From: Pseudomonadota bacterium
GTDB taxonomy: Bacteria > UBA10199 > 2-02-FULL-44-16 > JBDRGF01
Length of the DNA: 31,885 nucleotides
Direction: 5' to 3'
Assembly (NCBI GenBank): GCA_043818055.1
Contig: JBDRGF010000029.1
Span: 1 to 31,885, forward strand
Shown: positions 246-27,885 of the stretch, piece after piece
How the letters are laid out: each line of letters starts with the position of its first letter
How positions within the stretch are numbered: the stretch's first letter is position 1
The notes under the pieces: generated by a model
Told to the model about the DNA's origin: nothing
Database searches by the model: none
What the model saw: only the letters and a program-made list of their open reading frames with translations
Position numbers and translations under genes: made by a program

Positions 246-468
246 TCAGCAATTCCTTTGCTGTTCAGAAATCGGAAAGTGTTTTTAATAAAATAATCTC
301 TAAAGTCAACAGGTTAGAGGTTATGGGGAGGATCTGTCAAGATTCTTATTGTGAGCAGGAACAAAAAATAATTATCGAGGTTAAAGTATAAAAACCTTGT
401 CACTCTTCAAAAACCGTGTCAATTTGTATTTGCCGATCTGGAGCCTTAAAAATAACCAAAAATAGTTA

Positions 469-495
469 GCAACATTTTTCAGTACATGCCGATAA
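469..495 (+). promoter_or_regulatory. Sigma28 (FliA/WhiG)-like promoter upstream of the J-domain cluster
   Basis: GCAAC-N15-CCGATAA, with a perfect GCCGATAA -10 at 488-495. The same GCAAC-N15-CCGATA geometry recurs at 27859-27885 (-). Confidence 0.55.
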
Positions 496-548
496 AAAGC
501 CAAGATTTGAATTTTAATTTAATCAGTAAATAACTAAAGGAGGAATGT

Positions 549-2648
549 ATGAGTTTTGTAAAACCACCCAGTCTGTTCACCGCACAAGCGATGAAAACAC
601 CACAAACACTTGGAACGGCTTTTAATATGGCTGTCAAAGGTGTGTTTTCCCAAGGCCAAAGTAATCTCTGGCTGGATAGCGACAGCGATCAAGGCAAGGC
701 AATTATTGGATTAGGCTCTGACCTCTATCAGATAGCTAATACGTTGAGGACTATAGACTTTGATTCAGGCAATGAACTGCAGAAACGCGTAAAGCTATTC
801 GCAGTCATTGATGGAGAGATGCATGAAGGTTCGTTAAATGTGCAAAGAGTAAAAACGAACGCAACGCAGATCGAGGAGTTGCTTATAGGTATCAAAGAGG
901 AATCCTTTGAGGAGCTGACAAAGAAAATGGCAGATCAGATGGTCGATGGTGGTGCGAGCGTTCATACAGAATTGTCCGCTTCCGTAGTTCCTTCACTAGA
1001 GGGGGGCTTTGAAATGCCAGATATCGTAATTGGAGGTGAGGAGTTGGATTTGGAATTGGGTCATGTCCATCCTCGTGTTGAAGATCCGAGCAAACGGATT
1101 CCAATCAACATGCCGGTTGTTGATCAGGCAAGGACCACTTTAACAACTGCTATCGACAGTTATTTAAAGGGTCGTAGTTATTCCTCACAACAGGTACAGC
1201 AGGTGAGAGCTCATTTTGAAGCGCTCGTCAGTGGAGAGATCGATGCGGCAGCTATGGATCGACTTGCAGTGATTAAGTTTATGGCTAAAGGAGTTGGGCA
1301 TTCATTGGGTTATGCTGAACAGCTACTTTCCGAGGCTATGATGGCTGAGTTGCTTGGTGAGGAGTTAATTACACTTATCCCAGACTTGGGTGATGTGATG
1401 CCGAAGGATGTTTCAGCCTTGGTGGCTGAGCTTGCTAAAGAGAAAAAGGAAAAGGAGAGAGCTGATAGGGCTCAGCCCGTCGTTGGTTCTCCTCGAGAGT
1501 TGCTCAGGAAACTCAAAGTTCTTGCAGCTGATCACCCAGAGGTGATGGCTGCTCTGATCGAAGCTAATCCTGGTGCATATGGAGATCTAAGCCTTTTAGA
1601 CAGTCTTCCCGGGTTTCTAGAGGCTACATCCCCTCAAACTGGTAGAAATAAAGCGAGGGAATTTGCCGAGGCTCAGGCTGTTGATTTTATCCCAAACGGT
1701 TTTATAGGGGGAGACAAAGTGAGTTTCAATGTCTCTGATCTACTTCCAACCTCCGGTGTCCCTGCCACTGTGCAGGGTAGAGTGATTGATATTTATCTAG
1801 CCTCATCAAATTATGAAAAGGCCTTGGCAACGCGAGTTGACGATTCCAAGTATCCACTTGAGGATAGGCTCAATGTGTTATTGAGGGATTTAAACGTCAA
1901 CTCTTCCTATGTACAGAAAATTGTCGAAATAAAGGATATGATGAGTAAGGATTTTACTCTGGCAAGGGTTGCATATTTACGACTCAAACTGGGTATGATG
2001 AAGAATGCGATGGATCGTGTTAACGCTGAAGGTATTACAGCAATGAATCAACTGCATGATCGATTTAACACGATGATCGAACAGGGATCTTACTCAGAGG
2101 CTGAAGTCCTTCTCAATTACGCTAAAGGTTGGTTGGAAAAGATGGAAGAGAAACTTGCAGAAGTTAGAGAGACGATTGTAAACATCCTTATGATAGGAGA
2201 TCGAGATGCAGCAACCCAGTTTGAACAGTATGCCAAGGGATTTTTGAAGGCTGAGGATTATACTGGATTGAAGCAGTTCGTTAAGAGGATTTATGAGGAG
2301 TGTAAACCTCTCGAAATAATACTAAGTGCAAGGTCTGGACTTTTGCATCAACGCGTTACAGGTACTGCTGTAACGTTAATTGAATCGATCCGTACACTCG
2401 CACTCGCATCTGCCACAGATGTAAAGATGCTGGCAGCAAAGATTCCATCAGTAGAGGCTCAGCTTCGGTTTGGGGCAACGGGTCCAGACGCTGCAAGAGC
2501 AAATCTTCGTGAGTGGGGAATACCAGTCCCAGGTGACAAGGATGTAGCTGCATTGGGAACGGCTGGAGTAGCAGGCTACTTGCCAGAAGCAATGCGCAAA
2601 GATCGACTCCTGGCTGATGGAAACGGTACAGCTGGTGAAAAGAAATAG
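549..2648 (+). CDS. Hypothetical protein, 699 aa, helix-rich C-terminal half; first gene of the cluster
   Basis: Long ORF with a strong AAGGAGG RBS, ending 2 nt before the next gene. No recognisable family motif. Confidence 0.85.
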   Translation: MSFVKPPSLFTAQAMKTPQTLGTAFNMAVKGVFSQGQSNLWLDSDSDQGKAIIGLGSDLYQIANTLRTIDFDSGNELQKRVKLFAVIDGEMHEGSLNVQRVKTNATQIEELLIGIKEESFEELTKKMADQMVDGGASVHTELSASVVPSLEGGFEMPDIVIGGEELDLELGHVHPRVEDPSKRIPINMPVVDQARTTLTTAIDSYLKGRSYSSQQVQQVRAHFEALVSGEIDAAAMDRLAVIKFMAKGVGHSLGYAEQLLSEAMMAELLGEELITLIPDLGDVMPKDVSALVAELAKEKKEKERADRAQPVVGSPRELLRKLKVLAADHPEVMAALIEANPGAYGDLSLLDSLPGFLEATSPQTGRNKAREFAEAQAVDFIPNGFIGGDKVSFNVSDLLPTSGVPATVQGRVIDIYLASSNYEKALATRVDDSKYPLEDRLNVLLRDLNVNSSYVQKIVEIKDMMSKDFTLARVAYLRLKLGMMKNAMDRVNAEGITAMNQLHDRFNTMIEQGSYSEAEVLLNYAKGWLEKMEEKLAEVRETIVNILMIGDRDAATQFEQYAKGFLKAEDYTGLKQFVKRIYEECKPLEIILSARSGLLHQRVTGTAVTLIESIRTLALASATDVKMLAAKIPSVEAQLRFGATGPDAARANLREWGIPVPGDKDVAALGTAGVAGYLPEAMRKDRLLADGNGTAGEKK

Positions 2649-2650
2649 TT

Positions 2651-5092
2651 ATGAGTCACCTACTGCTGAGGTCATTTCTTGTCGGACCGGCCTCTTCCAG
2701 GCCTCAACTGGCGGCGCAACTCTTGAGCGATGAAAGTAATACTTCACACTTAAGGGTTGCGTTGACAGGACTCTCACATTTAATAAAAAATGAACCTCCA
2801 TTTTCAGAGGTGCAAAGCTCCTTTGAAAGTGGATTCATGGCGTTTCAAACAGCGCTGGATAAAAAATCTCCATCGAGGAAATTGGCTCAAGGTATCGTTC
2901 AGAGGAAATTAGCTCCCATTATATCCGGCCTGTCCGATCAAGCCTGGAGGTCGATGCTTCGTCGCTTCAGCAGCCTCGAAGATGTCAAATCCGATTTGGG
3001 TGATACACTGCAAAATGTATGGATGCCCCGGATCGTTGTTGAGGGAAAGGAAAAAAGACGCATCGCTGAAGTTGAAGCTCTGATGACCCAAACCTTAAGG
3101 GGGATGCTTTCGCTCTCCGTATATAATAATTATAGCCCGAGGGAATGGAACGAGACGCTATTTAAGTCAGGGCTGATTGAGGCGAGTGAAGTGAAGGTTG
3201 AGGTCGAAATTCTCAAGCCCGGCGAAGATGAAGTTCTGATCCAGGTAAGTTGGAATAGAATGAAAGATGGATCACCTGTTATCAGATTTGCCTGTCATCC
3301 AAAAGTCGAATTGACGCGAGAGCTCTTTGCCACTGCGGTCATGAGGGGCCTCCGATTGAAGCCTCTGAGTAACTATTTTAAGATTAGAGGGAAGGATCTT
3401 GCTCAGGAGGATTCAACCCCGCTTAAGCAGGATATCTCATTCTTCAAGGATCTCTTTCATGGTAACCTTTTGCCAGAGGGCGCTAACGCAGTTTTGACAA
3501 AGGTGCAGAGGAAATTGATCCTGAGAAATGAGTTTGTTGAATTAAAAAATGCATTCGGATTGGTTAAGATATCTCAAAAGATGAGAGATTTTTTGATATC
3601 TCAGCTAGACTCCCTTCAATTGCGCCTGAGAGTTCACTCTGTCGAAGATGAGGGTAAAAACATCGAGGGAGTGACCACATCGTTTCGTAAGGGATATATA
3701 TACATGAACGATTCTGATGCGCGCAAGGATGATACTCTCTTTGTAGATTTTAAGCTTTCCAATTTGGTGCGCGATACGCTCACTGAGAACGAAGTCTGGA
3801 TAGTTTTAGCCCGTGCTTTTTCAATGTGGGTGTGGAGGGGAAAAGAGGAGGGTAGCTCAAAGATCGATTTTCATATGAAGGATTCATCTGCATTGGAACC
3901 GACCCCGACCTTATGCATCTCTCCAACCCTCCCCCCCCTTTCGACCCATCCCGATGTTTCTAACAGAAAAGTTGCTGAATATCACAAAATTATAAATTGG
4001 CTTTCCGCAATCGATGAAGAGAGTGTCGGTAAATTTTCCGGCCTCAAAGAATTAAAACCCTTTTTTCAGGAGATCGGTTTGGCCGGTTTTAGATACAAAC
4101 TCATTCTATTAGAATGGATAAATAAGGAGCTTGAGAGGTGGAACGACGTCTTTATGAAACGAATCGGTGAGGGTTTTTATTCCTGGGAAATGCTTGTTTT
4201 TAGAGATTTTAAGGATCTTCTTTCGATATCGCCTTTTCAAATGTTGGAGCTTTTTAATATGATTATGAATGATTGTACATCTGGTGCACATAGAACTAGA
4301 GGCCCTCAAAACTTCAAAGTAAAATTTAATCGCAATGTAACGACTGTAAATAGAGGTGAGAAGGTGCCGTGGACATGGTTGCGACTTCTCTGGAGCTATG
4401 AAAACTTCCCTGACAGTTCCTCCGCACAAAATAAGATTCAGATTTTAGGAGATAGGGCTCAGGAGCTTGGACTTCCAATGGGCAGGGCGCTTAAAAGGGT
4501 TCTTTATTCCCTGATGAGTTCTGGAGAGATGAAGAATTTCAATAGAATGACCTTTGCTGTTGACTATGTGGATGCAAAAAATCAACTTGCAGGAGTATGG
4601 GAATTAAGAAAAGCTGATGCAAATAATGTTTCGATACTCTCAGGGGCAAAAGGAAAATTGATACACTTCGACGGATATCCAAATCTGGACGATAAAACCT
4701 GGGACAGGGTGATGCGCCTTGCTCTCAGGGCACCTGAGGGATATTCCTGGATGCGTCTTGGAAAGGTGTTGCTGACAAACCGGCCAGAACTGATAGCTGA
4801 AACAGGAAATGAAGAGTGGTATATGCTGAGTGCCGGATATAAAGGAGCGCAGCCGGATATTCGTTCTCAATATCGCCTTGCATTAGACCTTGTTCGGGAG
4901 GTCTCTGTCGCAGCTGGATTTGATTCACCCACACCCCAGTCGACTCACGATGAGATACGTTCGCTCTACCGAAGTCTTGCAAAGGTTTACCATCCCGACA
5001 GGAGAGGTACGGATAAGGATGTAGATGGTCTCTTCAATAGTCTGCAGGAGGCTTTTAACATTATGGAAAAGCTTCATCCTAAGGTGGGATGA
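2651..5092 (+). CDS. Large protein with C-terminal J-domain, type A paralog 1 (YHPD)
   Basis: C-terminus STHDEIRSLYRSLAKVYHPDRRGTDKDVDGLFNSLQEAFNIM matches J-domain helices II-III with HPD. Homologous along its length to 18484-20988 (LVGPAS, WTWLRL.W.YE, MRLAL.APEG.SW, TNRPELIAE). Confidence 0.85.
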   Translation: MSHLLLRSFLVGPASSRPQLAAQLLSDESNTSHLRVALTGLSHLIKNEPPFSEVQSSFESGFMAFQTALDKKSPSRKLAQGIVQRKLAPIISGLSDQAWRSMLRRFSSLEDVKSDLGDTLQNVWMPRIVVEGKEKRRIAEVEALMTQTLRGMLSLSVYNNYSPREWNETLFKSGLIEASEVKVEVEILKPGEDEVLIQVSWNRMKDGSPVIRFACHPKVELTRELFATAVMRGLRLKPLSNYFKIRGKDLAQEDSTPLKQDISFFKDLFHGNLLPEGANAVLTKVQRKLILRNEFVELKNAFGLVKISQKMRDFLISQLDSLQLRLRVHSVEDEGKNIEGVTTSFRKGYIYMNDSDARKDDTLFVDFKLSNLVRDTLTENEVWIVLARAFSMWVWRGKEEGSSKIDFHMKDSSALEPTPTLCISPTLPPLSTHPDVSNRKVAEYHKIINWLSAIDEESVGKFSGLKELKPFFQEIGLAGFRYKLILLEWINKELERWNDVFMKRIGEGFYSWEMLVFRDFKDLLSISPFQMLELFNMIMNDCTSGAHRTRGPQNFKVKFNRNVTTVNRGEKVPWTWLRLLWSYENFPDSSSAQNKIQILGDRAQELGLPMGRALKRVLYSLMSSGEMKNFNRMTFAVDYVDAKNQLAGVWELRKADANNVSILSGAKGKLIHFDGYPNLDDKTWDRVMRLALRAPEGYSWMRLGKVLLTNRPELIAETGNEEWYMLSAGYKGAQPDIRSQYRLALDLVREVSVAAGFDSPTPQSTHDEIRSLYRSLAKVYHPDRRGTDKDVDGLFNSLQEAFNIMEKLHPKVG

Positions 5093-5107
5093 ACCGGAGA
5101 ATTAAAA

Positions 5108-7330
5108 ATGGCAATTCACCCAAAATTACGCACTGCAAATCCTTTTAAGGAGCTTCAGGGTGTTATACAAACTTCTTCGCGGTTTGCCCATCTCGGCGCA
5201 CATCTTGATAAGATAGATACGCCAGAGGGGGGATTTCAGTTGGCCCCTCAAGTCTTTGCCAATATCACACAAGGCGCTGCTAAAATTTCACCCTGGTTTG
5301 CAAGCGCTCTTGTAAATGTTGAAGCACAAGCAGCACAAGCAGACAATGCGCATGTTATGAATAGGGTTGTTGCAGGCTGTAAAGCGATTTTTACAAAGCG
5401 TGAGGGTGAGAAGGGCTTATTTATAGAAGCTCCTCTTCCTATTGAACTCGATGTATTAAAATCTGAGCTGATGAAGGCGAACGATCCTGAGATACAGAAC
5501 GATTGGTTTTTGGAGGGAATTTACAGGCTTGGTGTCATTCCAAGGAATCAGATTTCAAATGGGATTCAGATGCTAAGAGAACGGGTCGATTTTTTATGTT
5601 CTATCTTTCTTCATCCTACGGATGATAGAGAGTTTTCAATCAACTGTAAAAATCCAAGCAAGAGTAGAATTGATATTGAAGTCGATGTCCCCCTGAGTGT
5701 GAAAGAATTGTCAGGAGAGGATTTGCAGAATATAGCTGCGCGTGCTCTGACCTTTTATGTGATCAAAAAATATTTAGCCAGCGATGCAAGAGGGGCTTTT
5801 TCGACATTTATGGATCGGAAGATTACAACCTTGCCTTCGTTCGCACATGTGAAGCCTGAACTGGAATCGATAACATACCCCGGAATAACTTTTTATACCA
5901 ATTCCATTTTTAAGAGCGAAAGGACTGTCAATTCACTTCATATGATGTTGTCGTGGCTCTTCGGTTGTGTGGGTTGTCACAATGTTCTTAAATTGTCCGA
6001 TGGTATATCTTCAAAAGTTCTTCAAACAAATGATAGTACGGAAGCAGCAATTAGAAAGAATATTTCCCGTCTAAAGAAAAATGCGGATTTTGAAAGCTAT
6101 TGGAAACATTTGGTTAGCGGATCCGGAATGCTGGAAACGATCGCACAGCCGATGACTAAATTACCGATTCCACCATATGGCATAACAATCAGAATCGATG
6201 ATAGCAAAGAGGGTATTGGGATAAGCCTCTCCGGAAATGAAGTTCAGAGGAATGTTTCTTTTCACCTCTCGCTAGATCATGACACCTTGAGTAAAATGAA
6301 GAGTGAGGATTTTCTTCGCTTGTTATGGCGAATCTCATCATTGCAACATAATAGACGACGTGATTTATCTTTCCATAGAGATTTTATTCGCACCGATTCT
6401 ATCGGTGATTACGAATTACTGAAAATGAGGCTGGGGGATTATACTGGAGAGAGACTTACTTTAGAAGATTTAAGAGATGAGATCGATTTTATGAGGGACG
6501 AGAGGAGAGATTTTGCCTACATGTTGCTTCTCTTTCAACATTATCAATTCAGTCAGTCCTCAGAGAGAGATTTAAATCGGATTCAGGTTAAAGGAAATCT
6601 AAAACTATCCTCGCAGAAGTCGTTTGCAACTGTTCTCAAAGCGATAGGGTCCTTTCTAAAAATTGATACTCAGGAGTCTGCTAAGGTTGCGTGGGAGGGT
6701 GTTATGAAGATGCGCTCCTGGTTTCTGGGAGAGGGAGAATCATCCGATGATGCAACTATTGTAGAGGTCACTCCGGTTAATGAGAGCGACGTGATTATAT
6801 TTATCAAGGGTAATTCGTGGAATCTGACTTCGCTCGATTGGTTGTTTGTGTTGTGCTCAGTAACTGCGAATGGCGATAGGTCGATACGTATCGGTATAAA
6901 TAAGAAGAGTCGCGAGATTGTCAACGGGGGATCGCACAAATTGGCAGAACTTCTGTATAATACTATCGCATCGAATCCGCTTTTTAGTCCATATAATTTA
7001 TACGATAAAGGCGCAAAAAAACCTCCCCACATCGATCTAGAGTTGCCGGGAGGAATTCGTGTCTCAGAGAATCCCAATTTTGTTAACGCGAAGGTTGAAG
7101 ATCAAAGAGCCTATCTGAGCGCTTTGCGATGGTTTGCTCAATCGGATGTCCCGGATGGATGGCAGCCGAAGGCGAACGATTCGGAATCTACTATAAAGAG
7201 TAAATTTCGCCAGATGGCGAAGGCGTGGCATCCGGATTTGAATAGAGCAACGCCGGAGCAGATGAAAATGTTCACTAAAGCACAGGATCGTTGGAGCGTT
7301 GTTCAGAGCATGCATGCCGGTATGAAATAA
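5108..7330 (+). CDS. Large protein with C-terminal J-domain, type B paralog 1 (WHPD)
   Basis: C-terminus DSESTIKSKFRQMAKAWHPDLNR. Carries the family motifs LDWLFVL, ANG, IDLELPGG and ALRWF..SDVP..WQP.AN. Confidence 0.85.
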   Translation: MAIHPKLRTANPFKELQGVIQTSSRFAHLGAHLDKIDTPEGGFQLAPQVFANITQGAAKISPWFASALVNVEAQAAQADNAHVMNRVVAGCKAIFTKREGEKGLFIEAPLPIELDVLKSELMKANDPEIQNDWFLEGIYRLGVIPRNQISNGIQMLRERVDFLCSIFLHPTDDREFSINCKNPSKSRIDIEVDVPLSVKELSGEDLQNIAARALTFYVIKKYLASDARGAFSTFMDRKITTLPSFAHVKPELESITYPGITFYTNSIFKSERTVNSLHMMLSWLFGCVGCHNVLKLSDGISSKVLQTNDSTEAAIRKNISRLKKNADFESYWKHLVSGSGMLETIAQPMTKLPIPPYGITIRIDDSKEGIGISLSGNEVQRNVSFHLSLDHDTLSKMKSEDFLRLLWRISSLQHNRRRDLSFHRDFIRTDSIGDYELLKMRLGDYTGERLTLEDLRDEIDFMRDERRDFAYMLLLFQHYQFSQSSERDLNRIQVKGNLKLSSQKSFATVLKAIGSFLKIDTQESAKVAWEGVMKMRSWFLGEGESSDDATIVEVTPVNESDVIIFIKGNSWNLTSLDWLFVLCSVTANGDRSIRIGINKKSREIVNGGSHKLAELLYNTIASNPLFSPYNLYDKGAKKPPHIDLELPGGIRVSENPNFVNAKVEDQRAYLSALRWFAQSDVPDGWQPKANDSESTIKSKFRQMAKAWHPDLNRATPEQMKMFTKAQDRWSVVQSMHAGMK

Positions 7331-7353
7331 TTAATTTATAATGGAGATGAAAT

Positions 7354-9618
7354 ATGGCAATAATTGGAAAGCTATTCCCAAAATATTTTGGCACGCTTCA
7401 AAAGGCTATGAGTGAAACTCAGTTCTCATCTCTGGCTCCGCAACTCGATTCGTTTCCCAAGGATGGTGTCGATCTGCAGCGCGCATCTCAGATACTCTCT
7501 GAAATCACCCATGGAATTGCAGCACGGTCCCCCGCTTTTGGATCTGTTCTCATGAATCATGCTGCACATGCTGAGTCTGTTAAGACTGTTGGCGCCATGT
7601 ATGATGTCATTAACTATTATACTAAGGCGATGAGCCGAATGGATGAATATCGGGAAGGGCGAAATCCTCCGATTTCATTCGACAGATTTCGGGCTTTGAT
7701 GCTTAAAATAAACAGCGAGGAAGACCAATTCCAATGGTTTAAAGAGGGATTGCAGAGACTCGGAGTCTCTCATCCCGATCAGGTATTAGTTAATGTTCCA
7801 ATAAATAGAGGAAGACTGTATCTCTGTTCCATTTTTTTAATGCCCGGGGAAGGAAATCGCTTCTCAATCGATATCGATTTTCAGTCAAATGCGCATTATA
7901 AAATCTCCATTGCATTTCCAGCATCTGTGAAGAGTCTATCTGAGGATGACCTTCAGTTGATAGCCGCTCGTGGACTTCTGTTTCAGGCACTGAAGGACTT
8001 TGTTCCCAGAGAGCTCAAGGCGGGATTGACCAGCTTTTCACAAAGAGAAATTACAAAGATCCCGAGTGGGGTCTATCTCTTTCCGAAAATTAAGAATTTT
8101 TCTGAAAGGAGGATGTTTGCTACAGAGGATTATTTAAAAGGAGGAAGAAATTTTGATGGTTTGTATGATATCCTGCTTTGGTTTCTCCAGCTTAAACAGG
8201 TTAACGAGTCAATAGGTACATCGAAGACAACAGGTTCTACCATGCAAAGGTTTCGAGGCGATCTTCAATTTGCATTCTGTAGTAGCGAATATTTAAGTCT
8301 AAGAGTTCCAGATGAGAAAATGGCTGAAGGGTATGAATATTGGTATTCCCTCTTCACTGACATGAGGCTTGCTGATACGGTTTTTCAGCCCTCTCAATGT
8401 CTGCTTTCACCTCCTTATTATATGTTGCTTAAGCTTGTGAAGGGAAATTCCATCACTATAGCGTCCAGACCCCTTCCAGAGAAGAGGGGAACCTATATCG
8501 ATTTTGAGATAGGAAATTCAATTTTTTCCAGGATGGAGCCGATAGACTTTGTTAAGTTGATATGGCGAGCAACTGTAGTGGTGAAAAACGCTCAAAAGTG
8601 GATTCCACAAAACTTTGAAGCTGATAAAAATCCTCCCCTCACGCAGAAAGGTGTAACCCACGATTATCGATATTTTCAAATGAGTGGTCTTTTGTTTTGG
8701 GAACTCGATATATTGAAGGATCGTAAGGATAGAGGCGGGATTGAAACTATCACTCTTGAACAGCTGAGAGAGGGAGATGCGTTGATAGAGGATGAAAAAA
8801 AACAATTTGCCAGACTCAAGCTTCTCTTCGAACACTTTCAATTTTCGAAAAGTGGAGGCATAACACCGAATAAGATACAGATTCAGGGCGATTTGAAGGC
8901 TATTTCTCAGAGGTATTTCGCCACAGCTTTAAAGGTTGTTGGGGCACACCTTAAAACAGGTGTGCAGGATTCTGTTCAGGCTGTTTTGGAGAATCTTCTG
9001 AAGGGAAGAACCTGGTTGTTTGGTGAGACGGGCGAATCTCGCAATACTACAATTGTAGAGGTCAGCCCATCCACTGATACAACCTTTGTAATGGTGGAGG
9101 GTGATTCGATGGATCTGAATCCGCGGGATTGGCTCTTCACGCTCGCCGCAATAGCGGCGAATGGCGATAGGCCCATACGTGTTGGAATCAATGCCGCTCA
9201 TCGGGAGATTGTCCTTGGAGGCTATGAGAAATTGGTGCTGGAATTATACTCCTCTGTCGCATCGATGCGTCTCTATGACTCATTTGGATGCTTCGATCCG
9301 AAAGTCAAGGCCCCCAAAGATATCGATCTTGAACTCCCCGGGGGAGTTTCGGCTTCACTAAATTCAAACTTAGATGGTGCCAGCGCTGAGCAGAGAAAAG
9401 GATATATAAAAGCCCTGCGATGGTTTTCAATGTCAGATGTTCCGGACAAGTGGCAGCCGAGGGCGAATGAATCTGAGACTCAGATAAAGAAAAAATATCG
9501 GGCAATGATGATGGCGTGGCATTTCGACAGGGGTGAGGCAACGCCCGATCAAATCAACCTTGCGACAAGTGCGCAGCCCCATTGGGATGCAGTGCTGAAT
9601 ATGCATAAAGCTAAATAA
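7354..9618 (+). CDS. Type B paralog 2, J-like domain with HFD
   Basis: C-terminus ESETQIKKKYRAMMMAWHFDRG. Same family motifs; GGAG RBS. Confidence 0.85.
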   Translation: MAIIGKLFPKYFGTLQKAMSETQFSSLAPQLDSFPKDGVDLQRASQILSEITHGIAARSPAFGSVLMNHAAHAESVKTVGAMYDVINYYTKAMSRMDEYREGRNPPISFDRFRALMLKINSEEDQFQWFKEGLQRLGVSHPDQVLVNVPINRGRLYLCSIFLMPGEGNRFSIDIDFQSNAHYKISIAFPASVKSLSEDDLQLIAARGLLFQALKDFVPRELKAGLTSFSQREITKIPSGVYLFPKIKNFSERRMFATEDYLKGGRNFDGLYDILLWFLQLKQVNESIGTSKTTGSTMQRFRGDLQFAFCSSEYLSLRVPDEKMAEGYEYWYSLFTDMRLADTVFQPSQCLLSPPYYMLLKLVKGNSITIASRPLPEKRGTYIDFEIGNSIFSRMEPIDFVKLIWRATVVVKNAQKWIPQNFEADKNPPLTQKGVTHDYRYFQMSGLLFWELDILKDRKDRGGIETITLEQLREGDALIEDEKKQFARLKLLFEHFQFSKSGGITPNKIQIQGDLKAISQRYFATALKVVGAHLKTGVQDSVQAVLENLLKGRTWLFGETGESRNTTIVEVSPSTDTTFVMVEGDSMDLNPRDWLFTLAAIAANGDRPIRVGINAAHREIVLGGYEKLVLELYSSVASMRLYDSFGCFDPKVKAPKDIDLELPGGVSASLNSNLDGASAEQRKGYIKALRWFSMSDVPDKWQPRANESETQIKKKYRAMMMAWHFDRGEATPDQINLATSAQPHWDAVLNMHKAK

Positions 9619-9655
9619 AAGTTTGTTATTCAGGATGACGATATAAGGATGAACG

Positions 9656-11941: not shown

Positions 11942-11946
11942 AGATA

Positions 11947-14136
11947 ATGTCATTGAAACATACACAATTACTTACAAGTAACTCAAAGGCCGTTCTTACA
12001 AAGATCAAAAATCATGTAGCTTTACCTCCATTTGCATCTCTTCCGATCGACCGTGAGTTGATGTCACGTCCCTCTTTGGACTATGGGTCAGCCATGCAGG
12101 TGCTCGGTGCTATAGCAGATGGAGTTGCTTATAAATCAGAGCTTGTAGGCTGTTTGCTCATGAATAGCGTAGCGGTGGCAGAGCACATGAGAAGAGGGGG
12201 GACTGCTTTTTTCAACGCCCTTACTATGTTTAACGGTAATTTGCGTCAAATTAAATTTTTAGATGAGAGCACGCAGTCGCCCATTCCGTACGATAGATTT
12301 AAGCCGCTGATTGATGAACTCTACGATCAGAAAGTTCGCGAAAATTGGGTCATGGGTGGACTTAAGATGCTGGGCATCATCCATCCTTTGGATGTCATCC
12401 TTAAATCAGGATTTGATTCTGATCACTTGCATGAATTTAGTATTTATTTCAACCCGGGCGAACATGATACATTTTCCACAGAGGAGAGTTACTATTCACA
12501 TTTGACCAACGCAAGGTTTTCTATCGATATGCCGAAGGGTGATTGCACGCTCTCTGAAGAGGATCTTCAGAAGATTGTGGCTCGCACACTAATTTATTTT
12601 TTAGTAAAGGATTTTGCCTCAGATGAGGTCAAAAAAGATTTAACCACCTTTTCATATGATGAACTGGGGAGACTCCCTGCTGACGGTTTTTTTCTGGATT
12701 TGGGGTGCGATCTGAAGAGGGTGAGATTCTATTCTGCACTCCTTTCAGATAAGTCTAAAATTTTGGACGGCTATCATGAGCTTTTGAATTGGTTGAACCT
12801 CTTTATAGTCGCTTATCAAGACCTATATGGATCTGATAAAAGTGCTGAGTTCAAGAGGAAGCCAGTAAGGATCTCTTTTGTTGATAAATATTGGCAGGAG
12901 ATGACAAGATCTAAAGGAAATATTCAAACTCTACTTGAGCCTGCCTCTCATATTCTCTACCGTCCCCACTCTTCATCGATAAGTGTTGTGGAGGGGTTTG
13001 GCGGAATAGGTGTATCTGTAAAGCCTTATAAATATTTTGCATCTGGTCATTCTATTAATATTACATTTGACAGGGAGACATTAAAACGGATGCGGATCGA
13101 CGATTTTCTCAGCTTAATTTGGAGGATCTCAGTTCTATCGAAAAACAGAAAAAATAAGCAGGGCAGTGCTGTTGAAGTAAATGAACTTCCAGTCTCCGAG
13201 CGATCAGATTTTAAGTTAGTAAGTGGGCGCGAGGATTATTATAAATATGAGAAAATCTCTTTGAATGAGCTGAGAGCTTCAAAAGATCTGACATCCTTTG
13301 AGAGGGAGGGGAATAGAAATTTACAACTGGTCTTTCAACACTATCGCTACTTTATTTCTCAGGGTACTAGCGAGAATAGTATTCAGCTCTTAGGCGATAT
13401 GGAGAAGGGCTCTCAGCATAATTTTGCTATGGCACTCAAGGTGATCGGCGCAAATCTCTCTGCAAAATCTGGCGAAACCTCCCGCATGGTATTGATGAAT
13501 ATTATGAAAGGGAGAACCTGGTTTTTGGGTGAGAGCGCTGAAGGTGATGAAAAACCTATCGTCGATATCACACCCTTTTCGGATAGTGCGATCATCTTTG
13601 TCAGGGGAAAATCGAATAAAATATCTCAGCTCGATTGGCTCTTTATTCTTTGTGCTATGGTGGCCAACAGCGGCAATACCATACGCATAGCGATCGGCAA
13701 TGGGCGGGAAATGATTATGGGACGTGGAAAAAAAATGGCGAAAGGCCTCTATGATGAACTAGCATCAAACAGGCTCAATCCCGCTGGGTTTGTGGATGAA
13801 AATGCCAGGCCTCCCCAATATATCGATTTTGAACTCCCCGGTGATATTTCGGTTACACAAAATCCACATTACTCCCCTGCTGCCGCTGAGGAGAAGCAGG
13901 CGTACTTAAACGCTCTGCTCTGGTTCTCACAATCGGATGTTCCGCTTAAGTGGCAGCCGGTTGCTAATGAATCTCTAAAAAGTGTCAAAAGAAAGTTTAG
14001 GGATATGTCTAAGGCATATCATTCAGACAGGTGTACAGATAAAAAGCTGGTCTCTCTCCTGAGTGATTCAAACCGGCACTGGCAGGCGGTTCTGGAGATG
14101 CACAAACCAAGAGGCAACAACTTAGAAAATGATTAA
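11947..14136 (+). CDS. Type B paralog 4, J-like domain with HSD
   Basis: C-terminus ESLKSVKRKFRDMSKAYHSDRC. Same family motifs; overlaps the next gene by 8 nt. Confidence 0.85.
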   Translation: MSLKHTQLLTSNSKAVLTKIKNHVALPPFASLPIDRELMSRPSLDYGSAMQVLGAIADGVAYKSELVGCLLMNSVAVAEHMRRGGTAFFNALTMFNGNLRQIKFLDESTQSPIPYDRFKPLIDELYDQKVRENWVMGGLKMLGIIHPLDVILKSGFDSDHLHEFSIYFNPGEHDTFSTEESYYSHLTNARFSIDMPKGDCTLSEEDLQKIVARTLIYFLVKDFASDEVKKDLTTFSYDELGRLPADGFFLDLGCDLKRVRFYSALLSDKSKILDGYHELLNWLNLFIVAYQDLYGSDKSAEFKRKPVRISFVDKYWQEMTRSKGNIQTLLEPASHILYRPHSSSISVVEGFGGIGVSVKPYKYFASGHSINITFDRETLKRMRIDDFLSLIWRISVLSKNRKNKQGSAVEVNELPVSERSDFKLVSGREDYYKYEKISLNELRASKDLTSFEREGNRNLQLVFQHYRYFISQGTSENSIQLLGDMEKGSQHNFAMALKVIGANLSAKSGETSRMVLMNIMKGRTWFLGESAEGDEKPIVDITPFSDSAIIFVRGKSNKISQLDWLFILCAMVANSGNTIRIAIGNGREMIMGRGKKMAKGLYDELASNRLNPAGFVDENARPPQYIDFELPGDISVTQNPHYSPAAAEEKQAYLNALLWFSQSDVPLKWQPVANESLKSVKRKFRDMSKAYHSDRCTDKKLVSLLSDSNRHWQAVLEMHKPRGNNLEND

Positions 14137-16246
14137 AAAAATCGGCACACAATTTCCTAAATTATTCTCTGAGATCGGAAGGGCTCTCGAGGGTTCTCCA
14201 TATTGCTCAGTTGCGTCTAAGCTCTCTTCACTCCCCGACGAGGGAGTCGATACTCAAATGGCATCGAATACGCTCTCTGAGATTACAAATGGAGTGGCAA
14301 GGCTCTCTCCAGGACTTGCTCATTCGCTAATCGGATATAATGCTCAATTTGAAAGCACACATTCCCTCCATGATATGAGATTCGCGCTTCTAAATTATGC
14401 AAAAGCGATTAAGGATGAAGAGAGATATAGAGATGCACCCACCTCGTTAATATCATTGATGCATCTCAAAGAGGTTATGATCAGAGCCAACCACAGGGAT
14501 TATCAGATTGATTGGCTCACACAGGGGTTGAAAGGTCTGAGTGTTTTCGATCCTGATGCAATTTTGGAGCATTTTCATTTTCGGGATAAAAGAAGGGTTT
14601 TGGCTCTTCTTCTCAGTCCCGGAGATGAAGATAATATTTCGATAGAGATCAATTACAAGAATAGTTGCGTCCCTGTCGACTTACATCTGACAGTTCCGAA
14701 TAATTTAGAGCAGCTCTCGGAGGAGATGCTCCAACTATTATTTGCGCGTGCTCTTGTATATAATGTTGTTAAAAGTTTCATAACGGAGGAATTTAGAGAG
14801 GCTATATGCTCATTTCCTGAAAATGCCATTAAGCAGCTTCCCCTATCGGCATATTTTAATTATACAATGGACGGCGCAGTTATGACCAGCTTTTATCAAA
14901 GAAATGGCATTGATAGGCCAGAGATCTTTGAGGGGGTCTTGAATTTATTGGATTGGGTTAATCAGATTAGACGATCACATATTTTTTTAACTCTGGCGCA
15001 TAATCTGGAAAATGCATTTCTTCTCCAAATGCAGGATGCATTTTATGATCTTCATAGCCCATATCGTATTCTCAAAGGGTTTTCGTCATTCAAGAGCTAT
15101 CTCGAGAGGGTGCTTCATTCAAAAGGTGTGTCAGATCATATTTTGCAATACGCCAATCGAATTCTTTCACCAAGCTATGCCATCTCAGTGAGTGTCGTTG
15201 ATGATGCAGAGAATGAGATCTCATTTGCTTTTGGTCACCTCGATCCGAATAAGAGCGTTGTGCTCGAATTTAGAATCAAACGTTCTATTTTTAGTAAGAT
15301 GTTATCACACGATTTTCTCACGCTCATATGGTTATCCTCTCAAGAAATAATGAATAGGCGTACTGAGCATGGAGAAAGATCTTTTATCCAGCTATCAGAG
15401 TTGCGCGAATATCAGGGGCTAACAGAGGAGGAGATGGAGTCTGCAACATATCTACAACTTCTCTATGAACATTATCGATTTACCCAATCAGATCGCTCCA
15501 GCTCCAATCAGATTCAAATTCTGGGAAACCTAAATTCATCATCCAAGAAGAGCTTTGGAAAGGTATTAAGAGTGATAGGTGCGCACCTCTCTTCGAATGC
15601 TCAGGAATCAGTTCAGGTAGTTTGGCAAAATGTTATGAAGAGGAGAGGATGGCTTTTAGGCGAGAGCGCACTAAAGAGTGAAAAGAATATGGTTGAAGTA
15701 ACTCCCTTTGCAGATAGCGCAATTATATTTGTCAGAGGAGATTCGACGACATTTTCGCAACTCGATTGGTTGTTTATTCTTGGCGCCATGGCTGCAAATG
15801 GAGAGAGGTTGGTGCGTATCTCAATTGCTAAGGAAAGGGAAATAATAACTGGTGGCAATCAGGCCATGGCGGTTGATTTATACAATGAGATTGCTTCGAA
15901 AGAGATCTACAATCCCTTTGGATGTTTTGATAAGAATGCAAAACAACCTTCTCGTATCGATTTTAAATTTCCCGGCGGAGTTCCAGCTGCACGAAATCCT
16001 AACTTTGAAGGTGCAAGTGCTGATCAGAGGAGGAAATATATAAATGCTATGCTTTGGTTTTCAATGTCAGACGTTCCTTCTCAGTGGCAGCCGATTGCAA
16101 ACGAATCTCTGGGAGAGGTTAAAAAGAAATATAGAGATATGATGAAGGCCTGGCATTCGGATAAGGGGGGGGCGAGTGCTGAACAGGTTTATATAATCAG
16201 TGAGGCTCAGCCTCATTGGGATGCTGTGTTGAATATGCATAAATAG
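14129..16246 (+). CDS. Type B paralog 5, J-like domain with HSD
   Basis: C-terminus ESLGEVKKKYRDMMKAWHSDKG. Same family motifs. Confidence 0.85.
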   Translation: MIKKIGTQFPKLFSEIGRALEGSPYCSVASKLSSLPDEGVDTQMASNTLSEITNGVARLSPGLAHSLIGYNAQFESTHSLHDMRFALLNYAKAIKDEERYRDAPTSLISLMHLKEVMIRANHRDYQIDWLTQGLKGLSVFDPDAILEHFHFRDKRRVLALLLSPGDEDNISIEINYKNSCVPVDLHLTVPNNLEQLSEEMLQLLFARALVYNVVKSFITEEFREAICSFPENAIKQLPLSAYFNYTMDGAVMTSFYQRNGIDRPEIFEGVLNLLDWVNQIRRSHIFLTLAHNLENAFLLQMQDAFYDLHSPYRILKGFSSFKSYLERVLHSKGVSDHILQYANRILSPSYAISVSVVDDAENEISFAFGHLDPNKSVVLEFRIKRSIFSKMLSHDFLTLIWLSSQEIMNRRTEHGERSFIQLSELREYQGLTEEEMESATYLQLLYEHYRFTQSDRSSSNQIQILGNLNSSSKKSFGKVLRVIGAHLSSNAQESVQVVWQNVMKRRGWLLGESALKSEKNMVEVTPFADSAIIFVRGDSTTFSQLDWLFILGAMAANGERLVRISIAKEREIITGGNQAMAVDLYNEIASKEIYNPFGCFDKNAKQPSRIDFKFPGGVPAARNPNFEGASADQRRKYINAMLWFSMSDVPSQWQPIANESLGEVKKKYRDMMKAWHSDKGGASAEQVYIISEAQPHWDAVLNMHK

Positions 16247-16279
16247 AAGTTGTATAACTATTGTTATTGGAGATTTTGA

Positions 16280-18463
16280 ATGACGAGAACTGTTGGAGTA
16301 AAGCTTGCCGGTTTATTTGGTGATCTAAAAGGGGTCATAGGCAGCTCTCCATTTTCATCATTGACCCCCCAGATTGACGAGTTGCCTGATGGCACTATCG
16401 ACTTGAAATCTGCCTCCAACATGCTGGTTAAACTTACAGATGGTGTGGCAAAATTAGATCCCAGCCTTGCGCATTCGCTCATCAGCTTTCCAGTTTTGGC
16501 TGAAAATACAGAGTCGTATTCCGTTATGAACAGTCTTGTTTTCGGTTTTTGTAAGACGATTCGTGAAGCTGATAAATACAGAACGATCCCATCCTCACTG
16601 ATGTCGCTAGAAGTTTTAAAAAAGATGTTATTTAAGGCCAATAACCCGGAGGAACAGGTAGCATGGTTTGAAAAGGGTCTTGAGATGATCGGGATTCCTC
16701 ATTCTGCAGCAATATTTACGAGATTGTTTGATAAAGATAGGGACGGCAGCATAGGTCTTTTTTTCAATACAGTTGAAAATGAACGCTTTGTTGTTGCATG
16801 CGATCACAGAAGCAAGGCTGCAAATATCGATATTCACATCGGAATACCCTCACATGTAACAGGTCTATCGAAAGATGACCTTCATCGGATTATGACGCGA
16901 ACCATTCTGTTTCAATCGATGAGAGATTTGATAACAAAAGATGTAAATGAGAGGTTTACCTCATTTTCTGAAGATGAGATTGCTAATGTTCCTCTCGACC
17001 TGTTCTATTTTAACGCTAGAGGCTCATCAAATAGGCTTCGCTTCTGTAAGGATCGTCTTCTTCAGGGGGCGATTTCTATGGATGTTTTGAATAATCTTTT
17101 CACCTGGTTTTTTATTATGGGAGAGGTGAATACCTGCCATAGGGGGGATGGTACTAATGTTGATATTGTTATTAATGAGATGCTCCATGATACGAGGAGA
17201 AATCTTGTTAAGAGCGTTGAAAAATTGGAGGGAGGGCGCTTCTTAAAGAGATACTGGAAAGATGTGTTTTCTAGTAAGACTTTCGTAAATACAATTCTTC
17301 AACCGATCAATCATATGTTGAGGGCTCCATACAGCATATCAATACGATTAATTTCTGAGGATAGTTGCAATATAGCAATCGTTAGAAATCTCATGCGGAA
17401 CTCCCCAGCCTCCATCATAGATCTTCAATTCAATCGCGAAATATTTTCAAAACTTAAGTTGGAGGATTTTCTTCAGCTCATGTGGAGAATTTCGATTCTG
17501 TCAAATTATCGTCGAGGGATGCGTCATAGTGGAATAAAACCGACAAATGCCTATGGACAGATTTTATTGCAGCGCAAGGGTGTTTTTAAGGGTGAAAAAA
17601 TATCATTGTCCGAGTTGAGGGAGGGTGGCGGTCTTACGAAAAATGAGAGAGAGGGATTTCAATATTTAAAGATCCTCTTTGAACATTATCAGCATGTTAA
17701 ACAAAATCCATCACCACCGGAAAATATTCAAATCTTAGGGGATATGAATAGCGGAGCTCAGGGAAGCTTCGCATTAACCCTTAAAGTTATTGCAGCAAAT
17801 CTTAGATCGAGTGATCAGGAGTTGTTTCAGGTTGTTTTGGAAAATGCCTTGAAAAGGCGGACATGGTTTTTGGCTGAGAGCGGAGGGGAGTCAGATGTTA
17901 CGATTGTTGAGATCAGCCAGTTTGCTGATAGTGCAATACTCTTCGTTAGAGGTGAGAGCGACAACCTGAGTCGACTGGATTGGTTGTTCGTGCTCTGTGT
18001 CATGGCAGCCAATGGCGCCCGTCCGATACAGGTGGGTATTCAAAAAGGCAGGGAAGTTTTACATGGCAGTCATAGTGAATTGCATAATACGCTCTACGGG
18101 AAGATTGCATCGAATAGGCTCAATCCCGATGGTTTTTTCGATGAAAATGTGAAGTCGCCATCCCGCATAGACTTTAGTCTTCCAGGTGGTGTTTCTGTAA
18201 GAGAGAATCCTAATTTCGCCGATTCAAAGACTGAAGCGAGAAAAGCCTATTTAAAGGCCCTTCTCTGGTTCGTGCAATCGGAAGTTCCCGATCAATGGCA
18301 GCCGAGGGCGAATGAATCGTTTGAAACGGTTAGAAAAAAATATTTGGATATGGCCAAAGAGTGCCATTCAGATAGATGTGCGGATGAAAAAATGGTCGCG
18401 TTTTTTAAGGAGTCAAACGAGTTTTGGCAGGTGGTTTTGGATATGCATAAAAAAATGGGATAA
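16280..18463 (+). CDS. Type B paralog 6, J-like domain with HSD
   Basis: C-terminus ESFETVRKKYLDMAKECHSDRC. Same family motifs; GGAG RBS. Confidence 0.85.
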   Translation: MTRTVGVKLAGLFGDLKGVIGSSPFSSLTPQIDELPDGTIDLKSASNMLVKLTDGVAKLDPSLAHSLISFPVLAENTESYSVMNSLVFGFCKTIREADKYRTIPSSLMSLEVLKKMLFKANNPEEQVAWFEKGLEMIGIPHSAAIFTRLFDKDRDGSIGLFFNTVENERFVVACDHRSKAANIDIHIGIPSHVTGLSKDDLHRIMTRTILFQSMRDLITKDVNERFTSFSEDEIANVPLDLFYFNARGSSNRLRFCKDRLLQGAISMDVLNNLFTWFFIMGEVNTCHRGDGTNVDIVINEMLHDTRRNLVKSVEKLEGGRFLKRYWKDVFSSKTFVNTILQPINHMLRAPYSISIRLISEDSCNIAIVRNLMRNSPASIIDLQFNREIFSKLKLEDFLQLMWRISILSNYRRGMRHSGIKPTNAYGQILLQRKGVFKGEKISLSELREGGGLTKNEREGFQYLKILFEHYQHVKQNPSPPENIQILGDMNSGAQGSFALTLKVIAANLRSSDQELFQVVLENALKRRTWFLAESGGESDVTIVEISQFADSAILFVRGESDNLSRLDWLFVLCVMAANGARPIQVGIQKGREVLHGSHSELHNTLYGKIASNRLNPDGFFDENVKSPSRIDFSLPGGVSVRENPNFADSKTEARKAYLKALLWFVQSEVPDQWQPRANESFETVRKKYLDMAKECHSDRCADEKMVAFFKESNEFWQVVLDMHKKMG

Positions 18464-18483
18464 AGTGATAGAGTAAAATAATT

Positions 18484-20988
18484 ATGATGCACCGACTAAT
18501 TAGAACATTGCTTGTGGGCCCTGCTTCAACAGAGTCGAAGTTTGCAGGCCAGGCTTTAAGAAATGAGAGAGACCTCTCTCATTTCGAGACTGCGATCAGA
18601 GGTCTATCTACAGTTATGCTCCAAGAGGATACGCTTCCCCAGGAGACAAAGAGCTCATTCGACACTGCCTGCACTCTTTTTTTGAGGGGCTCAGATTCAG
18701 ATCAAACCTCTGAAATAGATCAACGGATCATCCAATATAGACTGGCATCGATAGTATCAGGTGTCCCGGATGAGGCTTGGAGGTCAATAGCGAGACGTTT
18801 CGGAGAGCTTGAGGGGTTCTCTTTAAAAACAGGAAAATCATTAAGTGAGAGCTGGCTGCCGAAAATTGATCTGAAGGGAGAGAATGCTAAGCGAATTGGT
18901 GGGGTCAGGGCCTTAATGCCCTCTGTGTTTGAAAAGCTTTTCTCGCTCACGACACTATCTGACGCTGATACTAAAGATTGGAGCCAGCTGTTAGTCAAAT
19001 CGGAACTGCTTGATGCGGAGAGAATCACCTTTGTTCTAAGCGAGCTGGATAAGTCAGATTCAAAGTATCTAACGTGTTCCTGGGAGAAGGGGGTTGATGA
19101 CGATTTTGTTATTCAATTCGATTTTTCTCCAAGGTTAAAAGTCACCGCCACAATTTTAGCCTATGCAATTGCAAAGGCACTCCGTTCAGACAAGGTGCGT
19201 TCAATAGATTTGCATAAGAAACACCTTAAAATCGACCATCAAAGCCTGTTATATATGGAGGGATCGGCAATATTTGAGAAACGATTCAATTCTCCCCTTA
19301 TATCTAAAAAGGCTGATGACATGATCATCGACATTCAAAAAATACTAGCAAGTCAGGAGGAGAGGGGAAAAATAAAAGAGGGGCTTCTCGCGATGCAGAT
19401 GCCGCAAAAGATGATCGACTATCTGCTTGACCGCCTGTCATCAATGCGACTCAGCCTGCATATAAATTTGAACATCCTGAAAACAGGCTTAAGTGATGCA
19501 GTGAGTACAACCTTTGCGCGCAATACCCTTTTTATTGATATTTCCTCCTCACAATCAGAGCTTCTAAAGTTATCATCCTCACAGATGTGGGTCCTAATCG
19601 CCCGAACGTTTTCGATCTGGGTCGAAAGTGGAGGGTGTGCAGGGAAAAGAAAGACTTATTTTCAAACTAATAAGCCCTGCATCGCAATGCCTGCACAGGC
19701 GATCATCTTCTCGAAAAAAAGCCCCACAATCTCCTCTCATCCCGATATTCCGGACGAGCTTGTCAACGAATACGTACAACTGTTGAACTGGATCGAAGCG
19801 ATTCATAAGAGGGACACAAGGAAGTTACCTGGCACTACAGAATTGAAACCGTTTCTTAAGAAAGTAGGACTTTTAAAACCCGAGAGCTATCTGCCGCGAA
19901 TTTCAGCGCTCCAGTGGATAGGAAACAGGCGCGCTCGTAATATCGTGCTCTCTCAGGCGAGTGCAAGGGGAGGTTTCTGCAAAGGTATTATTTACGAGAA
20001 TATTAGCGACCTTGCTTTGTTACCACCTATGGAGATGATAGAGGTTGTTCACGTTTGTCAGGAAATAGCTAAATACAAAAAAGATCAATTTGCCAGACAT
20101 TCGTTATCACCTGAATCAGTACTTTCCATTAAGGAAGATTTAAAAGACAAAACTGATAGTTCCGATGGAATTTCTGAAGTGTTATCCGGTGTCCGATCTT
20201 TTCTCCCTGAAAATCCGAATCGACAAAACCTTTGGACATGGCTGCGCCTGATTTGGAATTATGAGATGCTGGCTATGAATCCTATCTCCAGGAAAGGTTT
20301 TCATATTATAGGAGAGCAGAAAAAGGTGCTCGGTCCTGATATGGGTAAAGCGATCAGGCGAATATTTCTCCCTCTAATGCAGTCTGGCAGACTTACTAAT
20401 GTCGAAAAAAGGGTCTTCATAGTCGACTATGCGAAGATCTATTCAGAACCGGAAAAAGTGACTAAAAATGAAAATATCACCTTTCTAAATACAATATTGC
20501 CAAAAAGAGAGGCTAAAAAGCTCTCTATTCTGGTAGCTTCCAATGCAACCCTGATGCACTTTGACGGTATTCCTGCCCTTGATGAACACAGATGGGATCT
20601 TTGCATGCGCCTTGCATTGACCGCACCGGAGGGCTTGAGCTGGATCACGCTCGGTTCATCGATAGAGACGAATCGGCCGGAGTTAATTGCAGAGGTAGGT
20701 GAGGAGAGCTGGTTTGCGTTGAATAAGCACTACGTCAATTCAACATTTGAAAAGCGTAATCAGTATCGAAATGCGCTTAAAATCTTTCGAACACTAGCAC
20801 AGGAAAATGATCTGTCACTCCCGGATCCACAATCATCTTATCAGGAGATTCGAGCAATCTTTCGCGAGTTTGTGAAACGATACCATCCGGACATAAGAGG
20901 GGCTGATAAAGATGTTGAAGGAATTTTTAACAACATTCATCGTGCATTTGAGATTTTGAAGTTGTTTCATCCAGAGAACGGTTCTTAA
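18484..20988 (+). CDS. Large protein with C-terminal J-domain, type A paralog 2 (YHPD)
   Basis: C-terminus SSYQEIRAIFREFVKRYHPDIRGADKDVEGIFNNIHRAFEIL. Colinear homolog of 2651-5092. Confidence 0.85.
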   Translation: MMHRLIRTLLVGPASTESKFAGQALRNERDLSHFETAIRGLSTVMLQEDTLPQETKSSFDTACTLFLRGSDSDQTSEIDQRIIQYRLASIVSGVPDEAWRSIARRFGELEGFSLKTGKSLSESWLPKIDLKGENAKRIGGVRALMPSVFEKLFSLTTLSDADTKDWSQLLVKSELLDAERITFVLSELDKSDSKYLTCSWEKGVDDDFVIQFDFSPRLKVTATILAYAIAKALRSDKVRSIDLHKKHLKIDHQSLLYMEGSAIFEKRFNSPLISKKADDMIIDIQKILASQEERGKIKEGLLAMQMPQKMIDYLLDRLSSMRLSLHINLNILKTGLSDAVSTTFARNTLFIDISSSQSELLKLSSSQMWVLIARTFSIWVESGGCAGKRKTYFQTNKPCIAMPAQAIIFSKKSPTISSHPDIPDELVNEYVQLLNWIEAIHKRDTRKLPGTTELKPFLKKVGLLKPESYLPRISALQWIGNRRARNIVLSQASARGGFCKGIIYENISDLALLPPMEMIEVVHVCQEIAKYKKDQFARHSLSPESVLSIKEDLKDKTDSSDGISEVLSGVRSFLPENPNRQNLWTWLRLIWNYEMLAMNPISRKGFHIIGEQKKVLGPDMGKAIRRIFLPLMQSGRLTNVEKRVFIVDYAKIYSEPEKVTKNENITFLNTILPKREAKKLSILVASNATLMHFDGIPALDEHRWDLCMRLALTAPEGLSWITLGSSIETNRPELIAEVGEESWFALNKHYVNSTFEKRNQYRNALKIFRTLAQENDLSLPDPQSSYQEIRAIFREFVKRYHPDIRGADKDVEGIFNNIHRAFEILKLFHPENGS

Positions 20989-21694
20989 AATATATTCCTA
21001 AAATAGTTGTGAGAATGATGAGGCTAGATGCCATGAGGAGATACTCTTTTAGATAAGCCGAGATGCTTATCATGAAAAGCGCAATGCCGGAGTAGAATAG
21101 GGGGATGCAGATTTTGTCGAAGGTTGTTTGTCTTCTATCGGTGGTTTTTAAGAATGGTAGATGTTTCCAAGCGACGAGATTTACAAGTATTGCGACCGCT
21201 GCAGTTAAAAACCAACCGGCAAAATTTGTGAGTGGGACGCCGAAATAAAACCCCGGATATACATAGTAGTGAATGCTTCCGAGAAACCAGCGATCACCCA
21301 TAGTCGCGACTGGGTCGATAATGACGTCGAGAAGCATCGTGAGCAGTCCACCTCCCAGCGTCAAAATCAAGATCGAACCTTTAGACTTTTTTATCTCTTC
21401 AAAGAGGCTAAAGCCCGCGAAGATGAGAAAGGGGTAGGATAGGGAATCAAACCAGGGGACGCCTGCAATTAGCATCTCTCCGGCGAGATTGTCGTACCTG
21501 TATTTATAGAGGCCGTAAGGAAAACCGTTGTGGATTGAAGAATATTCCGAGAGCCATGCGACCGTATAGCATGAGATCAGCCAGAACAGCGTCCGTCTCC
21601 ATCCGAATCTCCTGAATCCCAAAAAGAGAAATGAGATGAGAAAGATGAATACGTAAGGCCTTTTTACTACTGTTGTGAATATTTGTTCTAACAT
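20927..21694 (-). CDS. Carotenoid biosynthesis family membrane protein (DUF422/CruF-like)
   Basis: Multi-pass hydrophobic protein with motifs E.SSI..GFPYG.Y.Y, GVP, DVIIDPVA and GVPLTNFAGWF typical of this family. Confidence 0.75.
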   Translation of the reverse strand: MLEQIFTTVVKRPYVFIFLISFLFLGFRRFGWRRTLFWLISCYTVAWLSEYSSIHNGFPYGLYKYRYDNLAGEMLIAGVPWFDSLSYPFLIFAGFSLFEEIKKSKGSILILTLGGGLLTMLLDVIIDPVATMGDRWFLGSIHYYVYPGFYFGVPLTNFAGWFLTAAVAILVNLVAWKHLPFLKTTDRRQTTFDKICIPLFYSGIALFMISISAYLKEYLLMASSLIILTTILGIYFKNRSLDETTSKSQMHDECC

Positions 21695-27858: not shown

Positions 27859-27885
27859 ATATCGGTTTGGCTTTTGGAAAGTTGC
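27859..27885 (-). promoter_or_regulatory. Sigma28-like promoter upstream of the serpin
   Basis: Minus strand reads GCAAC-tttccaaaagccaaa-CCGATAT, the same 15-nt spacing as 469-495. Confidence 0.5.

Follow-up and report, generated by a model that had tools for sequence, protein, structure and literature searches.

A J-domain gene array tied by its promoter motif to an atypical type III secretion system in an uncultured groundwater bacterium

What does an uncultured groundwater bacterium do with an operon-like run of genes whose large products end in a J-like domain? The locus that raises this question lies at 549..20988 of contig JBDRGF010000029.1 (GenBank assembly GCA_043818055.1), a stretch of 31,885 nucleotides that is here called the window. 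We conclude that this array is real and undescribed, and that regulation strongly ties the J-domain proteins it encodes to an atypical type III secretion system (T3SS). A literature search that left most subscription journals outside its range found no published description of the locus or of its promoter motif. A preliminary description of this DNA had proposed that the proteins belong to no described J-domain family and that their bodies are of no recognised type; indeed, Pfam and PADLOC give no family beyond the J domain. It had not noticed that g1, a gene without a J domain, is a conserved partner, that the array arose from a three-gene cassette, or that five of the eight tails lack the proline of the HPD motif.

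The array proteins and their J-like tails

The array consists of nine co-oriented open reading frames (ORFs) on the plus strand, spanning ~20 kb. Recomputing the ORF positions in the window reproduced all nine genes and all eight gaps reported earlier (2, 15, 23, 37, 5, -8, 33 and 20 nt from g1 to g9). The first gene, g1 (549..2648, 699 aa), has no assignment in Pfam, NCBIfam, PDB or Atlas. Proteins of 705-834 aa are encoded by the other eight genes, g2 to g9, which BLASTP divides into two subfamilies, A (g2 and g9, 31% identity) and B (g3 to g8, 30-35%), with weak links between them. Type A comprises g2 (2651..5092, 813 aa) and g9 (18484..20988, 834 aa), the latter overlapped at its 3' end by a convergent gene (20927-21694, minus strand). 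Type B comprises g3 (5108..7330, 740 aa), g4 (7354..9618, 754 aa), g5 (9656..11941, 761 aa), g6 (11947..14136, 729 aa), g7 (14129..16246, 705 aa) and g8 (16280..18463, 727 aa). Despite the BLASTP split, profile comparison shows homology between A and B across 483 columns (hhalign 99.5%, E 2e-22), and by sequence comparison the eight paralogues first described form a single superfamily with C-terminal J folds.

The array does not result from misassembly: three public sequencing runs, one of which is possibly the source sample, gave contigs that align to window positions 1-20000 with no indels listed, and listed contig pieces span each of the g2/g3, g6/g7 and g8/g9 junctions. Nor is it a collapsed repeat, because the paralogues are only 30-35% identical. 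The runs that best cover the array come from groundwater and biofilm, and array GC and GC3 are in line with the genome. One contig from run X3 (depth 3.6) shows 10 differences in 74 nt at window positions 8736-8809, within a variable loop of g4; seven of the 10, counted by hand, fall at first or second codon positions, and they may reflect a strain variant or error.

The preliminary description had placed a J domain at the extreme C-terminus of all eight proteins. A C-terminal J fold was recovered in both structure models made (g2 and g8), but HPD is intact in three tails only (g2 at 781, g3 at 708 and g9 at 801); g4 carries HFD and g5 to g8 carry HSD (at 696 in g8). Against a Pfam DnaJ cut-off of 27.8, g2 (35.9) and g9 (30.1) pass, while g3 (27.5), g8 (17.8) and g4 (13) fall below it and g5 to g7 gave no Pfam DnaJ match. 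The tails of g4 to g8 are J-like and non-canonical. In PDB profile comparison the B profile matches CbpA and DnaJ at E 4e-5. The Pfam matches begin at profile position 10-11, and helix I is therefore replaced by a longer helix. Of the basic surface of helix II (R22, K26 and R27 in DnaJ), a basic residue is found at position 22 in all eight tails, at 26 in seven and at 27 in none. The class A/B DnaJ architecture is not present: the J domain is C-terminal, the zinc-finger motif CxxCxGxG is absent from the array proteins, as first stated, and Pfam finds no DnaJ_C match in them.

To place these tails among their relatives, we built a tree of 44 C-terminal segments, excluding partial or tail-less matches such as P0023, P0024, P0026, P0027, P0031, P0039, P0042 and P0046. 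HPD occurs in 28 rows, HxD in 13 and neither in three, so that H and D are kept in 41 of these 44 divergent tails. By eye, we count about seven places at which the proline appears to have been lost. All six B copies in the array genome (G000) fall into one clade (100/97) with g3 basal, and one loss of the proline therefore preceded most of the duplications. As described in PMC8215388, H33 and D35 of DnaJ form hydrogen bonds with DnaK, and P34 makes a hydrophobic contact. Retention of H and D in the tails is compatible with continued Hsp70 contact, though no proof of it. According to PMC10410713, a large J-domain survey kept non-HPD domains out of its main dataset.

We find it very doubtful that most tails have no Hsp70 function and serve as a structural cap or repurposed binding site, with the repeats of the body acting alone. 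The scattered loss of the proline, the loss of the whole motif in three of 44 rows, the helix I left unmatched by Pfam and a tail-less B homologue in G038 would all suit such a role, but the 41 tails with H and D, the 28 with HPD and the basic residues at positions 22 and 26 speak against it.

For the bodies, a Pfam scan gave no match beyond the J domain, and NCBIfam returned DnaJ matches only, all below cut-off, for the three array proteins tested. In the g2 model, a helical bundle at the N-terminus is followed by about four beta3-alpha (zincin-like) units and a J domain at ~739-811; the g8 model has a helical bundle (1-100), three beta3-alpha units and a J-like fold at ~659-722. With moderate structural scores, the bodies are predicted to be tandem repeats of a zincin-like fold. 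Zincin-like folds occur in AsaP1/M35, Wss1, minigluzincins and YbeY and, without catalysis, in TAF2 and GH20 N-domains; the array differs in having three to four units in tandem and in lacking the HExxH zinc motif, which is absent from 48 of 49 sequences. The helices equivalent to the zincin zinc helices contain no conserved histidine either, and the repeats are probably catalytically dead. No obvious transmembrane helix had been noted before, and the highest 19-residue hydropathy among the nine proteins, 1.53, likewise gives no clear sign of one.

A promoter motif shared with the type III secretion system

A sigma28-type promoter motif, GCAAC-N14-GCCGATAA (469..495, plus strand), lies upstream of g1 and is the only strong copy at the array. 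Using a matrix trained without the array contig and compared against 200 shuffles, we obtained a score of 28.3 for this motif; no shuffle exceeded 11.6, and no site before g2 to g9 exceeded 6.7. Two genes of the T3SS operon score 23.6 and 25.1, and the cassette heads in the relatives G013, G021, G038 and G033 score 14-30, in each case above all 200 shuffles; the motif at the G084 cassette head is weak. The matrix was negative before sctV, the chaperone operon on contig C12, dnaK and the internal array genes.

The motif is widespread. In G000 the GCAAC type occurs 54 times, compared with ~7 expected; 49 sites are intergenic, and the spacer is 14-15 in 42 of 56 motif pairs. The pattern GCAAC-N13-15-GYCGAT was found 51, 52, 31, 42 and 147 times in G013, G021, G084, G038 and G033, respectively, where the reversed control gave 3, 3, 3, 2 and 9. 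Of 44 motif-led ORFs, 39 were scanned in Pfam and 30 had no match, compared with four of 27 control genes from three stretches. The pattern marks a regulon at the level of the phylum, in which most genes are orphans and some encode 1200-1900 aa; in the six genomes counted it predicts 30-150 co-regulated genes per genome.

The T3SS itself is atypical. SctN, SctR, SctL and SctV of G000 score over cut-off and SctJ, SctT and a SycD-like protein below it, and a Q-like protein is present. Inside the T3SS operon (contig C90) a FliA/WhiG-like sigma factor is encoded, while no flagellin was found in this genome, which is 94% complete. We infer that this sigma factor reads the array motif, because the -10 box, CCGATA, is the FliA box of Bdellovibrio (PMC3627812). 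In the account given there, the FliA attack-phase regulon places the same box over many uncharacterised genes, as in the array genome; the array has a -35 box of GCAAC, not TTAAG, and predation in its lineage is only proposed.

An SctN orthologue, the T3SS ATPase, occurs in 87 of 93 phylum genomes, and SctC is over cut-off in none of the 93. The three secretins of G000 are GspD-, PilQ- and Tad-type-like. A T3SS without its own secretin, together with a Tad-type system, is also described for Myxococcus T3SS*/Kil predation (PMC12075869), and it is because of this contact-killing arrangement that we favour a bacterial target. The array genome differs from Myxococcus in having SycD-like chaperones and possible needle-like genes. 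Two small proteins of the T3SS operon (L029:730-1233 and 5022-5498, on C90), the first of which precedes a CdsG/SycD-like chaperone, gave no Pfam or PDB match; their C-termini presumably resemble needle or inner-rod subunits.

An N-terminal composition poor in acidic residues and rich in S, T, P, N and Q marks type III signals. The first 25 residues of the array proteins fit this description (D+E 0.03 vs 0.11), like those of motif-led genes, and distant homologues have signal-like N-termini too. It is rather unlikely that the array encodes T3SS effectors which, like HopI1 of Pseudomonas syringae, target Hsp70 in a eukaryotic host, for example a protist. SycD/LcrH-like chaperones, SctO/SctP-like proteins, a TLC-family ATP/ADP transporter match and a serpin would be in keeping with such a host, but SctC is missing at cut-off throughout the phylum genomes, the chaperone neighbours have no translocator family match, and Pfam found no ankyrin, LRR or ubiquitin-ligase match among the 39 motif-led genes. 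Among the PDB matches of the J tails, the bacterial proteins CbpA and DnaJ rank narrowly first. The transporter match (L100:8609-9994, contig C141) is over cut-off with a partial profile and is a possible energy-parasite trait. The serpin lies in the window (26562-27827, minus strand), has a lipoprotein-like N-terminus and is accompanied near 27885 by a strong variant of the promoter motif (score 20.9).

The preliminary description had left two options, effectors aimed at another cell's Hsp70 or adaptors for the cell's own DnaK in stress or anti-phage defence. The motif common to array and T3SS operon, the T3SS neighbours in two relatives and the signal-like N-termini strengthen the first. The stress or anti-phage option gains nothing, and we consider such a system scarcely credible: patchy distribution and tandem duplication would be expected of a defence system, but PADLOC profiles matched none of the nine proteins at E 0.01, g3 has no phage match, array GC and GC3 are those of the genome, and the motif precedes T3SS genes and not dnaK.

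The three-gene cassette and its relatives

An all-protein search gave 29 matches at E 1e-10 or better, and matches past rank ~45 cover essentially the J region alone. Among the 93 phylum genomes, type B occurs in six, type A in three (an ordinary J domain accounts for a fourth match) and g1 in three by single-sequence search. The recurring unit is B, g1, A, found whole in L053 and spread over two contigs each in G021 and G013; G084 has the version B, B, g1. Homologues of g1 adjoin B or A genes in G021, G084, L053 and G013 (in G013 its 5' end only). As judged from these sequences, the three-gene cassette has been expanded to give the window order (g1, A, six B, A). Cassette genes adjoin T3SS genes in two relatives; G013 has one half of the cassette directly beside sctT and the other half, on a separate contig, beside a SycD-like operon.

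The tail motifs differ between genomes. B carries HPD and A carries HTD in G013, G021 and L053, whereas the reverse trend holds in G000, with HPD in A and HSD in most B copies. A more distant operon in G033 (L024:6102-20000 and L025:1-2844) is motif-led and contains about seven orphan genes, a g1-like gene among them; four have distant J-like tails, and HPD is kept in one. The B homologue of G038 (L023:3849-5522) ends before the J tail and retains the promoter motif, and P0024 has the same short, tail-less form.

These features also bear on a cytoplasmic role. The proteins could serve the producer's own DnaK as class C co-chaperones, expressed at the life stage at which the T3SS is made. Their task would be to load or unfold bulky secretion substrates or to remodel the apparatus, possibly within a complex of g1, A and B that combines active and attenuated J domains. 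The conserved cassette, its tight gaps and the reciprocal HPD pattern favour this explanation, the main rival of the one we prefer, which we regard as somewhat unlikely. The cassette is no core accessory, being present in six of 93 genomes when the T3SS ATPase is in 87. The six B copies, with identities of 30-35%, suggest diversification of targets over a stoichiometric machine, and signal-like N-termini that extend to distant homologues are not what such co-chaperones would need. A J and J-like pair is described for Pam18/Pam16 (Tim14/Tim16; PMC10939069, 2guz), from which the array differs in that its degenerate copies retain H and D and no import motor is present. Bacterial class C proteins covered in PMC8215388 and PMC10939069 include DjlA/B/C, HscB and the atcJABC operon. 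Like them, the array appends a J domain to a specificity module without G/F region or zinc finger, and like AtcJ it sits in an operon with partners. Unlike them, it has no adjoining dedicated Hsp70, its bodies of 700-950 aa have no family match, and its motif is linked to a T3SS.

A proposed action on the Hsp70 of another cell

We read the array as a lineage-specific cassette expansion within the sigma28-like regulon of an atypical T3SS. The explanation we favour, with the chances of its being right evenly poised, is that its products are T3SS-delivered J-domain adaptors acting on the Hsp70 of a target cell, most likely a bacterial one. The chain of events would run from transcription through export and the binding of clients to the engagement of Hsp70. 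The FliA-like sigma factor of the T3SS operon would drive a single long transcript from the motif observed at 469-495. Short acid-poor N-termini would then direct the proteins to the T3SS for passage into a contacted cell, bacterial prey or host more probably than a eukaryote, where the predicted dead zincin-like repeats may bind target proteins, with different paralogues for different targets or different prey. By the known J mechanism, the C-terminal domain would bring the target cell's DnaK/Hsp70 onto the bound proteins, or simply occupy it. HPD copies should stimulate Hsp70. Copies with HSD or HFD, in which both hydrogen-bonding residues are retained, may stimulate it weakly or compete, and g1 would be a co-acting partner.

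More tentatively still, the array may be an interbacterial effector family that hijacks or jams prey DnaK through the secretin-less T3SS, with dead zincin repeats choosing the targets, HPD copies as activators and HSD copies as competitors. On this tentative proposal the cassette would be one item in a phylum-wide sigma28-like regulon with dozens of orphan candidate effectors per genome.

The case for delivery has several weaknesses. Despite their signal-like composition, the modelled N-termini are mostly helical, and folded N-termini are what own-DnaK co-chaperones would predict. Adjacency to T3SS genes was seen in one genus and is explained equally well by an accessory role. Sigma28 regulons can act as life-stage programmes, and RNA data were uninformative.

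In its mode of action the array would resemble class C J proteins and, should its products be secreted, also HopI1, which PMC8150971 describes as a T3SS effector with a C-terminal J domain. The parallel is a C-terminal J domain on a type III substrate, proposed here, as is the use of another cell's Hsp70. Compared with HopI1 as described, the array has a zincin-like-repeat body, eight copies per operon and a partner gene; five of its eight tails lack HPD, its T3SS lacks SctC, and its target is probably bacterial.

J-domain effectors are known against plant Hsp70. An effector against bacterial DnaK, if the favoured explanation is true, would be a new mode of attack by bacteria on bacteria and a first way into the lifestyle of an uncultured, T3SS-bearing phylum, and the promoter motif would let candidate effectors be listed genome by genome. 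The natural HSD, HTD and HFD tails, with H and D fixed, allow the contribution of the HPD proline to be tested directly.

The absence of dnaK from the window, as first reported, agrees with the location of the genome's two Hsp70 genes on contigs C121 and C14. On C14 (33368-47504) the second Hsp70 and a weak J domain lie within an apparent gas-vesicle gene cluster. Elsewhere in the window, all on the minus strand, are the start of a divergent lipoprotein-like ORF (1 to ~245), which runs on into contig C86 across an overlap of 141 nt, an orphan with a Pro/Thr-rich N-terminus and no strong promoter motif (27927-28808), and a small repeat protein that is rich in Cys and begins with a signal-like segment (23194-23487).

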